This document shows, in pieces, positions 16,665-31,880 of a DNA stretch of 64,000 nt. The notes beneath the pieces were generated by a model that was given only the letters and a program-made list of their open reading frames with translations, ran no database searches and was not told where the DNA came from. Numbering within the stretch: position 1 is the first letter of the stretch; the number at the start of each line of letters is the position of its first letter. The stretch is from assembly GCA_963807605.1 (NCBI GenBank), contig CAWECG010000004.1, forward strand, positions 1 through 64,000. Reading direction: 5' to 3'. Made by a program: the position numbers and the translations under genes. This DNA is from Candidatus Bathyarchaeota archaeon. Its GTDB lineage: Archaea; Thermoproteota; Bathyarchaeia; 40CM-2-53-6; RBG-13-38-9.

Positions 16665-16703
16665 CATGAGGAGGAGGAATAGATTGTGTGTGCTCACCAG
16701 CTA
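16665..16703 (+). repeat. Dispersed repeat copy A (right half)
   Basis: CATG..GGAGGAATAGATTGTGTGTGCTCACCAGCTA. Confidence 0.8.
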
Positions 16704-16872
16704 TACTGACTACTGTAGCCTCTTCGCAACTCATCCTGAGATTGAGCGGCCATGCAAACGCAGACCAGACCTGCTCGCGAAGTTGAAACGCCAGGAGAGT
16801 CTTAACAGGAAGAATCTATTTTTGATCAGCTTAGGGTTTAGGTCTCCTTGGAGATATTGCCGACAGCAAGGA

Positions 16873-17196
16873 TCATTCTGCTCTTCGCAGGATGTCGTTT
16901 CCTTTAATTCTCACTTCATAAGATGGTTCGTCTTTGATCGTTGGGCGCCGAAAGAGCATCTTGGGGCCTGAAACGACTTTTCCTGTGGTTACATCGAATT
17001 TGCATCCGTGCCTTGAACAAGTCAGTATGTTACCATCTAAGGAACCTTTCGAAAGGTCTCCGCCAGCATGAGTACATATGCTTCCTATCGCGTAGTAGTT
17101 ACCCTTCACATTTGATAGCAAGATTTCCTTTTGCGAATTCATCTTCATTTTCCCAGCTGGAATCTCAGAAGTCTCAGCGATCTTAACGAACTCCAG
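16873..17196 (-). CDS. Rieske [2Fe-2S] ferredoxin
   Basis: CTHAGG...CSRHG ligands. The frame extends to a CTG at 17196 (LEFVKIAETSEIPAGKMK) after GGGAGGT. Confidence 0.88.
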   Translation of the reverse strand: MEFVKIAETSEIPAGKMKMNSQKEILLSNVKGNYYAIGSICTHAGGDLSKGSLDGNILTCSRHGCKFDVTTGKVVSGPKMLFRRPTIKDEPSYEVRIKGNDILRRAE

Positions 17197-17282
17197 ACTC
17201 TAAACCTCCCTGCAATACATTGTATAGCAACCGACATAAAGTCGATCTCAGCTTAGGGTCTTTCGGATCTGGGTCTCTCCAT

Positions 17283-17376
17283 GTGTCTGTGCTTTAGCTG
17301 GTGAGAGCACCAGGAATTGAACCGTTAGAGCGAGCTTTGTGTGTGTGTGTGTGTGTGTGTGTGTGCTCACCAAGGG
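17283..17376 (+). repeat. Dispersed repeat copy B (full, with (TG)14)
   Basis: TAGCTGGTGAG-AGCACC-AGGAATTGAACCGTTAGAGCGAGCT-(TG)14-CTCACCAAGG. Confidence 0.88.
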
Positions 17377-17566
17377 ACAGGGGATATAGGTAAGGAGGGG
17401 GTTTGCTGGGGTACGTTGAACCCTCTGTTTTCGACGTTGAACTTTAAACGTTGAAGTGGTTTTTGGCTTTTTTGGGTTTTGACGGGTTCAGCGTTGGCGT
17501 ATTTTTAGTGGCTGGATTGAAATTGTCTTGTTTGATTAGCAACTTAGCAACTGATAACATGCAAAG

Positions 17567-17842
17567 TTAGGCATAATTAGCAAGATATTTCTTTATAGCG
17601 AGCCCCGCTCTGAATTTGTGGAACGCGTCTGCTGCAGCTTTGTTGACTTTTCTAAGTGATTCCACTACCATGTCTGACAGTTTCTGCGCATCAACAACAG
17701 CCATCTTCTCCACTTTCATACTTACTTCCTTCGCTACTTTTTCGGACTCTTCAATGGTTGCACCAGCCTCCTTGCACCCCGCTATGATCTTTGAGTCCAG
17801 GTATTCCTCTGTTTTTCCGATCCTTTTCTTCACATCAACCAT
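17567..17842 (-). CDS. Stand-alone ATP-cone domain protein
   Basis: VKKRIGKTEEYLDSKIIAGCKEAGA matches the ATP-cone VxKRxGxxExF..KI pattern. Confidence 0.75.
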   Translation of the reverse strand: MVDVKKRIGKTEEYLDSKIIAGCKEAGATIEESEKVAKEVSMKVEKMAVVDAQKLSDMVVESLRKVNKAAADAFHKFRAGLAIKKYLANYA

Positions 17843-17928
17843 ACTTTATCACCTCTCTATTCTTTTTGATTTCTGAAATAGAAAAACGGGGGAAACTGGG
17901 AGTGTATGCCTCCCAGGTTACTTTCGGT

Positions 17929-18453
17929 TTATGCCTTAACGTAAGGCTGGTACGCGAATAGTGTTTCGCTTCTCCAGATGCCCTCGGTATGGGCGATCTG
18001 TTCGTCAGTCGCTTTCATGAGCTGCTCATAGTTCTGAGCCTTGTAACTCATGATGATATCGAACTGACCTGGGAAACTCCACGCGTCGTGTAAGGCTGGT
18101 AGCCTCTTCAGCTTCTGTAAAACTTCCGGTAATGGTTTGTTGATTGATAATAGGCTGAATGCCCAAACGCCCTGCGCGTCAAGCTTCTGACCGTTAACGA
18201 ATCCATCATTTGCCGTGTAAGTGTTGGTAGCGTTCACTCCATGGATGCTGCGTATTTTGTTAATTGTGCTGTATAGTTGTTCTGGGTTACTGGTCTTTAT
18301 TCGCATGACAATATCGTATCGACCGGTCACTTGTGCGGAGAACTCTATCTCGCTGTACTTTCGTAATTCCTCAACCACCTGTGGCACACGGTCACGCTGA
18401 ACCTTGGCGAACACGTAAGTCGGGAACATTTTATTTTCTTGCATTGCATTCAC
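17929..18453 (-). CDS. Tandem Lrp/AsnC ligand-binding (RAM) domain protein without HTH
   Basis: VTGRYDIV...IRSIHGVNATNT, then a second repeat FPGQFDII...EGIWRSET. Confidence 0.8.
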   Translation of the reverse strand: MNAMQENKMFPTYVFAKVQRDRVPQVVEELRKYSEIEFSAQVTGRYDIVMRIKTSNPEQLYSTINKIRSIHGVNATNTYTANDGFVNGQKLDAQGVWAFSLLSINKPLPEVLQKLKRLPALHDAWSFPGQFDIIMSYKAQNYEQLMKATDEQIAHTEGIWRSETLFAYQPYVKA

Positions 18454-18558
18454 CTACTAACCTTGAGTATGAGTTAGTATCGGTTATATATGCATCAGAC
18501 TTATAAGTCTTGTTACTTAAAGATATGTTTGTAACATTCACCAATTCAGGCATGAGCC

Positions 18559-29956: not shown

Positions 29957-29981
29957 CGCTCACCAAGGAATAAGCACACAC
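29957..29981 (+). repeat. Dispersed repeat copy F (half-site)
   Basis: GCTCACCAAGGAATAAGCACACAC abuts the SDR stop codon. Confidence 0.65.
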
Positions 29982-30734
29982 CTAGCCGTTTAGATGGTTG
30001 AATATGGCTTCTGGGTTGTGTTGTGCTGATCTGTAAAGTTCTTGGGCTTCGCCTATGATTATCTCCTCCTTATCGGCCCTTACTCCTTCTATTATTGCCG
30101 CTGCGACTTCTTTGGAGCTGATTCCCCGGTAGGCTTCCTTTTCGCCGGCGAAGCCGCGGTCGAGTTCGGTGTCGGTGGTTGGGGGGACGGCCTCAAACAC
30201 TCTGATCGACGTGTCTTTGAGTTGGTGGCGTAGTGAGATCGTGAAGGAGTGGATGGCTGCCTTGGTTGCGCAGTAGATTGGCATCGTGGCGATTGGTACA
30301 AACGCTAGTCCAGATGAGATGTTTATGATTGCGGCTTTCTGCCTTCTCATGAGCTTGGGTGTGAATAGGGCGCAAAGGCGTATGGGTGCACAGAGGTTTA
30401 TCATCACTTCATCGTTTTTGGCGAGTGTAGGCTTGGCTGCTGTTGGTGACGTGAAATCCCTCTGCCGTTGAATTCCAGCATTGTTGACTAGCATGTTAAG
30501 GTGTGGAAAGTGTGCTATTGCCCAGTGGAGTAAATCTTGTCTCTCTGATTCGATGGAAACGTCGCACTGCCTGATATGGATTGCCGGTAGCTTGCGCTTT
30601 GCGTCCCGCAGTCGACTCTTACGGCGCCCGCACACTATCACCTCACTTCCTGCTCCAACAAACTTCTCAGCCAGGGCTAACCCTATGCCTGTGGCGCCGC
30701 CAGTAATCAGAATAGTGTTCTCATCAATGTTCAA
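29982..30734 (-). CDS. Short-chain dehydrogenase (DltE-like)
   Basis: ITGGATGIG, NNAGIQ, SSGLAF.P, YCATKAA. Confidence 0.93.
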   Translation of the reverse strand: MNIDENTILITGGATGIGLALAEKFVGAGSEVIVCGRRKSRLRDAKRKLPAIHIRQCDVSIESERQDLLHWAIAHFPHLNMLVNNAGIQRQRDFTSPTAAKPTLAKNDEVMINLCAPIRLCALFTPKLMRRQKAAIINISSGLAFVPIATMPIYCATKAAIHSFTISLRHQLKDTSIRVFEAVPPTTDTELDRGFAGEKEAYRGISSKEVAAAIIEGVRADKEEIIIGEAQELYRSAQHNPEAIFNHLNG

Positions 30735-30848
30735 ACATGCTTCAGCTCCACGGACCTTTCTGTCAACATGTCCAAATATTTCTTGCTGGAGGGATTCTTC
30801 CCCTGACTATTGAAGAAGGTAGAACCAGAAGATGAGGTGTCTCTTTTT

Positions 30849-30906
30849 TGTGTGTGGCCTAGCTGGTGAGCACACACAAAATTCATGACTCAACGGTTCA
30901 AATTAC
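30849..30906 (-). repeat. Dispersed repeat copy G (minus strand)
   Basis: Reverse complement reads GTAATTTGAACCGTTGAGTCATGAATTTTGTGTGTGCTCACCAGCTAGGCCACACACA. Confidence 0.88.
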
Positions 30907-31009
30907 TGGCTTCGAAATCCCGCCAGTGGAAGCGTACGGGTCGTTCAATGTTAGGAGATGAGTGGAAATACTGTTGGCCATTGACATTCACCGGGAGGGG
31001 GTGTGTCCC

Positions 31010-31120
31010 TCAGAAAAGTGCGGCTTTGCGTTCTTTCTTCTTCTCGCGTGCTTTCGCCACCTTCCTCTCTCTACTAGCCGTCCACGCTTTCTTAGCTCCC
31101 CTACTTCTCTTGCCTGCCAT
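31010..31120 (-). CDS. Small basic protein (36 aa)
   Basis: MAGKRSRGAKKAWTASRERKVAKAREKKKERKAALF, preceded by a GAGGTGA Shine-Dalgarno. Confidence 0.6.
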   Translation of the reverse strand: MAGKRSRGAKKAWTASRERKVAKAREKKKERKAALF

Positions 31121-31246
31121 ACATTAGTCACCTCTCATATACAACATAGCACTAACACTCGAATAAGCAACTTCCGACAATAGCGCGCGCTATGTTATGA
31201 CTGTCTAGAATTCAGAAGAATGGGCCTCTCCAGTCATGAGTATAGA

Positions 31247-31693
31247 CTATCTGACTATAGTTACTGAGCAAAGTGCGTGACGCGCGACCTTCTCGGCTAC
31301 GCTACCCAACTGGAATCGTGTTTTTCCAAGACCCGTGCTTCCTATTATCACTAAATCGAAATCTCTTGCATACGATACTATCTCTTCTGCAGGATCTCCA
31401 GTAACAGCAACGGTCTCGAATTCTATCTTATCAGACTTGGCTTTGTCACCCGCGATTCTAAAGATGTCTGCACTCGCTCTCTCTGGATAGGTAGCAATAG
31501 CAGCATTGATATCATCCAGCTTGTAGAATTTCTTGATCTCCGCATCATTTAGAAATTCTCTAAACTTCTCTTCTTCAGTCACATGCATGATACAGATCTT
31601 CGCGTGCTGTCCCTTCGCCAAGTCCAAGGCGAAGTCCAAGGTCTTATACGAGTGTTCAGAGCCGTCTAACGGCACAAGAATCTTTCTTAACAA
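31247..31693 (-). CDS. Universal stress protein
   Basis: KILVPLDGSEHS, GDPAEEI, IGSTG...LGSVAEKVARHA.CSV. Confidence 0.93.
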   Translation of the reverse strand: MLRKILVPLDGSEHSYKTLDFALDLAKGQHAKICIMHVTEEEKFREFLNDAEIKKFYKLDDINAAIATYPERASADIFRIAGDKAKSDKIEFETVAVTGDPAEEIVSYARDFDLVIIGSTGLGKTRFQLGSVAEKVARHALCSVTIVR

Positions 31694-31811
31694 TTCTCAG
31701 AAAACCTCCCGCTAATCACTATCAATACTGATTTGCTTAAAAAATGCGTCGTAGGCCCTATAGAGGTGTTATGGTAATAAGCGAGCGCGGGCGATGTACC
31801 CCTTGCCACAC

Positions 31812-31880
31812 CTGGTGAGGGCGTTTAGGATTTGAATCGTTAGAGCGAACTATTTTTGGTGGTGGTGTGCTCACCAGCTA
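31812..31880 (+). repeat. Dispersed repeat copy H (full)
   Basis: CTGGTGAG-GGCGTTT-AGGATTTGAATCGTTAGAGCGAACT-...TGGTGGTGTG-CTCACCAGCTA. Confidence 0.85.

Follow-up and report, generated by a model that had tools for sequence, protein, structure and literature searches.

The stretch of 64,000 nucleotides considered here (the window) is C4:1-64000, the beginning of contig C4 in a 2.65-Mb, five-contig Bathyarchaeia assembly (genome G000; other contigs are cited in the same way). At 16.6-31.9 kb it holds an island in which arsenic, stress and redox genes are laid out, cassette-like, between copies of a short repeat, labeled A to H. Besides a Rieske gene and a flavodoxin-arsenic block, the genes between the repeats include, by Pfam, an ATP-cone/AsnC/ACT group, a small open reading frame (ORF), two molybdopterin oxidoreductase genes, a short-chain dehydrogenase (SDR) gene and a Usp gene. 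The repeats mark the boundaries of mobile or rearranged gene blocks. They are probably the footprints—landing sites and end pieces—of a family of casposons, elements moved by a Cas1-type integrase, that has no detectable polymerase of its own.

A preliminary description of this DNA listed eight related copies, and all eight are present, each at or within a few bases of its reported position; the pattern TAGCTGGTGAG, with at most one mismatch, occurs eight times in the window against 1.04 expected, a number that none of 100 shuffles reached. Two further degenerate copies had been missed (19733-19746 and 25720-25733), so that eleven clear 14-bp boxes plus two degenerate ones can be placed. The claim that the family is confined to 15 kb is true of the window but not of the genome, in which the core CTCACCAGCTA has 69 exact copies on four contigs, against about one expected, and ranks third among repeated 11-mers, behind (GT)n and AGCGCGCGCT. 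Around 135 CTCACCA sites genome-wide bear flanks typical of the family. (An 11-mer map at a threshold of 6 was too noisy for use.)

Alignment of all copies resolves the repeat into modules. At its center is the box, 14 bp long and made of CTCACCA plus seven variable bases, and upstream of 52 boxes stands TTCAAAT-N5-TGCT, the start of a 23-nt leader whose last seven bases the box overlaps. Leader and first seven box bases reproduce the geometry of a tRNA 3' half: a T-loop of 7 (TTCAAAT), a T-stem of 5, an acceptor strand of 7, the discriminator A, and CCA. ARAGORN and Rfam scans found no tRNA or RNA family in the window, and the acceptor end of the leader, GCTCTCACCA, occurs in none of the 19 tRNAs that the Rfam model recovers from the genome—an under-detected set—all of which end in GGxCC(A/G)CCA. 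Because no tRNA is predicted at the sites and no detected tRNA has the same acceptor end, we regard the leader as a tRNA-end mimic; the alternative that the sites are tRNA genes or split-tRNA halves was rejected, since none of the 19 detected tRNAs shares that end. Most of these 19 are 90-120 nt long (intron-bearing) and nearly all have an encoded CCA; ARAGORN recovers nine.

On either side of the box there may be a tip, a simple repeat that reads (CA)n, (CGA)n or (CCA)n into the element, and tips are present at A to H. Behind the tip follows an arm of one of several types: a short one that contains an A-run and a new copy of leader and box (a decoy-site arm); a longer one with the GGGAGAAGAATCTCCC hairpin and a GGCTCGCTACGCTCGC box; or an unrelated sequence, GGGGATATAG..., which we call gamma and which follows ten boxes genome-wide, that at the right flank of B included. 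A tip follows 39 of the 52 leader sites: in 22 of them its first base is exactly +15, and in another 14, whose boxes end in ACA, it begins at +12 to +14. At 60 sites genome-wide a tip abuts base 1 of the box with no leader between them, and 33 sites are tip-box-tip junctions. The dyad consensus proposed in the preliminary description, with inverted ends around a variable center, fits B and H well and E in part; A, C, D and F are half-sites consisting of tip and box.

Table 1. Repeats, arms and associated genes in the window (positions are those of the window; parts with their own strand show it in parentheses)
Feature	Position	Strand	Composition and remarks
Repeat A, terminal arm	16606-16692	-	Casposon-type long end, directed inward: (CA)n tip, GGGAGAAGAATCTCCC hairpin, GGCTCGCTACGCTCG box
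Repeat A, 14-bp box	16693-16706	+	CTCACCAGCTATAC; directly behind tip
Rieske [2Fe-2S] gene	16873-17148	-	Between A and B; PF00355, E 1.9e-13
Repeat B, dyad	17283-17379		Aligns with the arm hosting the Cas1 element; tip GTGTCTGTG; box 17292-17305 (-), reverse complement CTCACCAGCTAAAG; tRNA-end mimic 17306-17328 (-); (TG)14 tip; box 17366-17379 (+), CTCACCAAGGGACA
Gamma arm	17380-17480	+	GGGGATATAGGTAAGG... with three ACGTTGAA repeats
Repeat C	19363-19430	+	(TG)27 tip, then box CTCACCATATAGAC at 19417-19430
Repeat D	19664-19746	+	Tip TTGTGTGTG; box 19674-19687 (CTCACCAGCTATGG); forward arm 19688-19732 (CACGCAC, A-run, degenerate tRNA-end mimic); degenerate inner box 19733-19746; next tip from ~19747
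Cargo block D/E	19757-26149		Flavodoxin, ArsM-like methyltransferase, AbrB/MazE-like, MtrA-like, ArsR, ACR3, 119-aa ORF, low-molecular-weight-phosphatase ArsC
Degenerate box	25720-25733	-	CCATAGTTGGTGAG; just upstream of arsC; right limit of 461-bp module
Repeat E, dyad	26196-26265		Box 26196-26209 (-); truncated mimic 26210-26227 (-); alpha-like tip piece 26228-26251; box 26252-26265 (+), CTCACCATCTAGAC
Tyrosine integrase C-terminus remnant	27266-27493	-	75-aa zinc-ribbon tail; zinc-ribbon Pfam matches
Repeat F	29948-29981	+	(GTC)n tip; box 29959-29972 (CTCACCAAGGAATA); tip AGCACACAC against SDR stop codon
SDR cassette	29973-30856	-	Short-chain dehydrogenase (PF00106, E 1.5e-44) plus arm with GGGATTCTTCCCC hairpin and (CA)n tip
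Repeat G	30850-30911		Tip GTGTGTG; box 30857-30870 (-); forward arm CACACACAAAA...CAACGGTTCAAATTACTGGCT, own box lost
Repeat H, dyad	31806-31883		Inner box 31806-31819 (-), unoccupied; mimic (-); (GGT)n/TG tip
Repeat H, outer box	31870-31883	+	CTCACCAGCTAAGT; unique DNA beyond; right edge of island

The inverted arrangements described for A/B, D/E and F/G are real, as is the contact of F with the stop codon of the SDR gene (29982). Repeat A has the look of a solo end, and no partner arm turned up on the left of it; its arm clusters with those at C1:137951, C3:555921 and C1:351909, and its GCT(C/T)GCTACGCTCGC box recurs in the inverted end of a Cas1-encoding element of another genome, G090. At repeat C, a 104-aa ORF (19343-19657) crosses the (TG)27 microsatellite, which is translated as repeated Cys-Val; a paralog, at C3:455.9 kb, exists for the C-terminal part alone (from ~19500), and this also ends 12 nt before a tip plus box.

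Of the enzymes, a Cas1 casposase has the strongest link to these sites. Cas1 has three matches in the genome, all of one family by tblastn, of which one is intact and the rest are remnants; no other Cas1 was found in the genome, including any of the CRISPR type. The intact protein (402 aa; PF01867, E 2.7e-49) has as its best solved relative the casposase of Methanosarcina mazei, 6OPM, to which it aligns over its full length (E 5.7e-72, against 4.4e-25 for the best CRISPR Cas1). Its gene lies in an element of 8,980 bp (C3:796434-805413) with inverted (CGA)n ends, CGACGACGACGA and TCGTCGTCGTCG; the 14 bp on either side of it form a perfect direct repeat (reverse complement CTCACCAGCTAAAG), with a leader directly beside one copy. 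The element itself sits in a decoy-site arm, with which the five leader-bearing arms of the window (B, D, E, G and H) align. Equivalent elements occur on contig C50 of G090, where the casposase is 80% identical, the perfect 14-bp duplication is CTCACCAGCTGTGG and the 28-nt inverted ends read (CA)nAAAAATATGATGGCT, and on contig C45 of G077, with the perfect 14-bp duplication CGCACCAGCTGACC and (CCG)n ends. As in casposons, a Cas1-type integrase unlinked to a CRISPR array is here combined with inverted ends and a 14-bp duplication. The self-encoded family B DNA polymerase of casposons was not found: Pfam shows no polymerase domain in the ORFs of the complete G000 and G090 elements, although several of these ORFs have no Pfam match and might encode a divergent polymerase, and PF03175 has no match in the genome, which is 94% complete. 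The cargo of the elements is defence-like, with SIR2_2, DUF5677 and an ATPase in one and a TIR domain in the other.

The target is consistent with published casposase biochemistry. The casposase of Aciduliprofundum boonei needs TCAAATC 9-15 bp upstream of the insertion point, together with the first two bases of the duplicated segment, while of the element end only the five 3'-terminal bases matter (Béguin et al., PMC6614799). In 44 of the 52 leader sites TTCAAAT stands exactly 9 nt before the box; TCAAATY therefore occupies -15 to -9, the position of the A. boonei motif. The short tips fit the minimal end requirement of that enzyme. In Methanosarcina, tandem casposons are separated by one shared duplication, and solo inverted ends occur (PMC4779613); these are precedents for the tip-box-tip junctions and for repeat A, respectively.

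Site and casposase also occur together beyond this genome. Among 105 genomes of the order, the pattern TTCAAAT-N5-TGCTCTCACCA, with at most one mismatch, was found in 33, with the most copies (43) in G000, whereas the reversed pattern, used as a control, was found in none of the 105; other genera have the variant CTCGCACCA. Relatives of the casposase were found in 30 genomes. Of the 105 genomes, 22 have both site and casposase, 11 have just the site, 8 just the casposase and 64 neither; the corresponding counts for genera are 9, 2, 0 and 14. Since the genomes are related, this co-occurrence is an association and not a statistical test.

Both the transfer of a cassette and strain-level rearrangement are observed at the sites. 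The SDR cassette is 89% identical to a copy on contig C9 of G027, a genome from another family, whereas other genes shared by the two are about 65-75% identical; the homology starts at 29982, beside the tip of F, and stops in the (TG)n tip at G. The flanks of the G027 copy hold no recognizable box. On one sediment-metagenome contig, position 26163, just beyond arsC, is connected to 19748, where the flavodoxin block starts, and the joint consists of 40 nt reading GGGAATTGTGTGTG plus TACAATAGCTGGTGAG, that is, tip plus box. Other strains are without 27295-29949 or 27533-29898, the large molybdoenzyme gene, with one right breakpoint at the tip of F. The fillers or breakpoints of these strain deletions are GCGCGCGC runs, and one metagenome contig has CGCGCGC in place of 27295-29949. 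In the metagenome runs at most 15% of sampled words were present and none shows the window's own strain; contig joints alone were used. A comparison of empty sites with G001, of the same genus, and with G006 was defeated by gene orders that are too scrambled.

A second short sequence accompanies several of these limits. The run AGCGCGCGCT(A) is the second most repeated 11-mer of the genome, with 100 copies, among them those at 15249, 25250-25262, 26182-26190 and 29899-29906 in the window, and the homology limits of duplicated modules and of strain deletions fall at runs of this type. One such module occupies 25259-25719 (461 bp) and contains a 119-aa ORF that belongs to no known family. It recurs with 98% identity at C1:353671-354131 and more weakly at C3:584338 and C3:558798, and GCGCGCGC runs, not boxes, mark its limits.

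The layout of genes bracketed singly or in small blocks by a repeated, imperfectly dyad site is reminiscent of integrons, which have been reported in archaea, and the preliminary description had proposed an integron-like cassette system as one option. In such a system an IntI-type recombinase would capture single-gene cassettes at folded, attC-like single-stranded DNA sites. The likeness extends to the adaptive cargo (arsenic, stress, redox) and to movement between lineages. But no tyrosine recombinase domain is present in the window, where only the 75-aa tail remnant was found, and the predicted single-stranded folds of six sites, examined for attC-like hairpins, are no better than those of shuffled sequences (z +0.40, -0.20, -2.11, -2.03, +1.16 and +1.01). 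Sites and cargo genes occur in both orientations; the ~135 sites, instead of clustering in one array next to an integrase, are dispersed over four contigs; what is conserved is a mimic of a tRNA end and not an R''/R' pair, with no attC sequence features; and the enzyme is a Cas1 transposase instead of IntI. The integron reading is already largely refuted, and we consider it scarcely credible.

The other early suggestion, a family of miniature inverted-repeat transposable elements (MITEs) that mobilizes passenger genes, comes close to the evidence in that the repeats do bound mobile or rearranged blocks. A match to the ends of a known insertion sequence (IS) had been named as evidence against the proposal. 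The ends do match those of a known kind of element, because the Cas1 element has both the 14-bp box duplication and simple-repeat inverted ends, yet that kind is the casposon and not an IS. A reading in which the repeats are MITEs or REP-like (repetitive extragenic palindromic) elements of ordinary ISs with a DDE or Y1 transposase, unrelated to Cas1, could draw on the short, mostly intergenic units with inverted tips and many copies, and on a genome that contains active IS copies and four Y1 transposases. It is nevertheless very unlikely: the ends of the active IS (TGCTGTGTTGCATGAC...) are unrelated to the repeat family and its duplications are 5-8 bp; the Y1 transposases lie elsewhere, with none in the window; a 14-bp duplication beside a tRNA-end mimic is a casposon signature; and the same tips bound Cas1-encoding elements in three genomes. 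No autonomous IS or Y1 element of the genome was found to share the repeat ends, a comparison that did not cover every IS family. The active IS itself is 1.08 kb long with a 297-aa ORF, inverted ends TGCTGTGTTGCATGACTAG and 5-8-bp duplications, and has eight copies that are 99.9-100% identical (window 9120-10201, C1:414439, C1:152072, C3:768088, C3:1121263, C3:532251, C3:312332 and C4:401061).

Several results do not fit simple insertion and weigh against the casposon reading. Exact matched pairs of 14-mers number 4, against 4.6 in permutations that shuffle the variable parts, and pairs with at most one mismatch number 10 against 9.0, and 16 against 12.2; only the Cas1 element pairs cleanly in the genome. 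No window unit has a matching duplication, as no two boxes there agree in 14 bases and orientation. Many units, such as F/G, are flanked by inverted boxes, which insertion by staggered cuts cannot produce directly, and both copies (C1:519822 and C3:454570) of a 98% identical, enzyme-less element of 810 nt lie between inverted boxes. Facing ends agree in tip type only as often as expected by chance, and decoy-site arms are convergent no more often than chance. tblastn with the genome's Cas1 found no casposase gene or remnant on the window contig, several strain-level breakpoints fall at GCGCGCGC runs and not at boxes, and a tyrosine integrase ends in the same leader plus box. Paired long inverted arms as a general architecture were rejected, since convergent pairing is not enriched; D/E and G/H look like such pairs. 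Because matched duplications are no commoner than chance, most units would be old, rearranged or moved by other means. It is possible that age and deletion, in a genome with GCGCGCGC-sealed joints, have removed the pairs; flipping of the 14-bp box between inverted (TG)n and (CA)n tips, recombination among the many copies, and the action of a second enzyme are other possible reasons.

Such a second enzyme may be represented by the tyrosine integrase. The gene at C1:287794-289002 encodes a 403-aa recombinase (PF00589) whose last codons read through leader plus box, with a gamma arm next to it, and its attachment site may lie inside the 3' end of the gene. The final eleven codons consist of the tRNA-end mimic plus box (…PISSSNSAILTS*), and the gamma arm contains inverted GTGGA(T/C)A repeats. 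On C2, a degraded integrase (56.5-57.4 kb) stops 40 nt before a leader plus box. The integrase tail remnant noted earlier in the window was correctly recognized, being 76% identical (E 3e-42) to the C-terminus of this C2 integrase. The gamma arm, which in the window stands beside B, is found elsewhere after the 3' end of a tyrosine integrase gene, and relatives (contig C27 of G006) have it beside the same box. The overlap of integrase gene and site, the C2 integrase and the gamma arm together make the site seem common to casposon-type and integrase-type elements.

It could be argued further that the boxes are the attachment sites of tRNA-targeting tyrosine integrases, at which circular blocks are inserted, excised and flipped within leader plus box, the tips being no more than sequence around the element's own site. 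Recombination between inverted sites would account for both the inverted boxes and the missing matched duplications, and the reuse of a tRNA-3'-end-like site, with an integrase 3' end overlapping it and a remnant in the array, resembles the arrays that archaeal tyrosine integrases form at tRNA genes. However, most junctions here are tip-to-box without a leader copy, as at the 60 sites where the tip lies on box base 1, whereas duplication of a tRNA-type attachment site would include the leader; and the target is a mimic and not a tRNA gene. The three Cas1 elements have inverted ends, exactly 14 duplicated bp and no leader copy at the far end, and at least two of them contain no integrase by Pfam. 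PF00589 has five matches in the genome and none in the window, tblastn with the genome's integrase found no match on the window contig, and among the five integrases a single one has the site at its end. Both motif and spacing of the leader, moreover, agree with the recognition motif of a casposase (PMC6614799). We consider this explanation of the boxes unlikely, and see the integrase as contributing rather than as chiefly responsible, because of the leaderless tip-to-box junctions and of Cas1 elements with inverted ends and exactly 14 duplicated bases.

Under the favored casposon reading, a casposase supplied in trans by the 9-kb element on C3—the intact copy that, judged from sequence, could be available to the window units—would read TCAAATY 9-15 bp upstream of the box, cut both strands 14 bp apart, and join DNA that has the simple-repeat tips as its 3' ends. 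A leader plus box of their own is present in many short arms, which would so offer a decoy for landing; B, E and H are dyads made of such an arm inverted beside an outer box. Later insertions would therefore accumulate next to earlier ones, leaving the Rieske, arsenic, SDR and Usp genes as cargo between sites. The Cas1 element, itself inserted in such an arm, is one observed case of an insertion that a decoy site may have seeded. We infer that the enzyme-less units of the window were moved by the C3-element casposase and that inverted boxes arose by later rearrangement.

Known casposons are rare, large, polymerase-carrying elements, of which a few copies lie at genuine tRNA genes or between genes. 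The present family most resembles the family 2 casposons (AciBoo-C1 of A. boonei; the M. mazei elements, casposase structure 6OPM). The resemblance takes in the Cas1-solo integrase, closest to 6OPM with its C-terminal part included; terminal inverted repeats together with a target-site duplication of 14 bp; a target overlapping a tRNA-like sequence at its 3' end, with TCAAATY at -15 to -9 as in A. boonei (PMC6614799); and tandem elements with one shared duplication and solo ends (PMC4779613). The casposase, the 14-bp duplication, the tRNA-end target and tandem elements are thus already known. What differs from described casposons is the apparent lack of a family B polymerase in elements and genome, with a defence-like cargo; a target that is a mimic present about 50 times and not a real tRNA gene; ends made of simple-sequence repeats; a decoy target in many arms; and dozens of enzyme-less units that contain ordinary genes. 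The cassette-like layout of arsenic, stress and redox genes between the sites is not yet described for casposons, and the literature searched held no description of casposons in Bathyarchaeia or of non-autonomous casposon derivatives.

A broader and more tentative possibility, which we would put forward as a conjecture, is that a Cas1 integrase here runs an integron-like form of gene capture, in which enzyme-less casposon derivatives without a polymerase bear ordinary genes and, in one arm, a decoy tRNA-end target, so that they plant the next target and arrays grow without a tRNA gene. CRISPR arrays, built by Cas1-Cas2 through leader-proximal spacer integration, have in common with this system an enzyme of the Cas1 family, a leader motif whose distance from the cut is fixed, and a short box duplicated with each insertion; they differ in that the inserts here are genes or elements of 0.05-10 kb between boxes unlike one another, and in that no Cas2, effector genes, CRISPR-type Cas1 or evidence of transcript processing was found. 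If Cas1-run gene capture does take place, it would be a living analog of the step between casposon and CRISPR array. Should the enzyme-less units indeed be moved in trans, the accessory genome of an abundant group of soil archaea would be shaped by Cas1, and the system would lend itself to a test of how a leader plus duplicated box could become a CRISPR array.

Two other segments of the island stand out by their abundance in metagenomes. The gene at 17903-18461, for a 174-aa protein with two AsnC-type ligand-binding domains, has about 25 times the depth of its neighbors in contigs from four metagenomes of soil, sediment and wetland that are unrelated to one another, and the homology of metagenome contigs stops at the limits of the gene, which is either very conserved or widely transferred. 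In the same four metagenomes the 164 nt at 31015-31178 reach a summed depth of ~300-600. A 97% identical copy of this segment lies beside a tRNA gene at C3:712364-712579. It has no Rfam match, and the conserved 176 nt at 31007-31182 fold no better than shuffled sequences on either strand; the minus strand of 31015-31178 contains a 36-aa ORF rich in Lys and Arg (MAGKRSRGAKK...).

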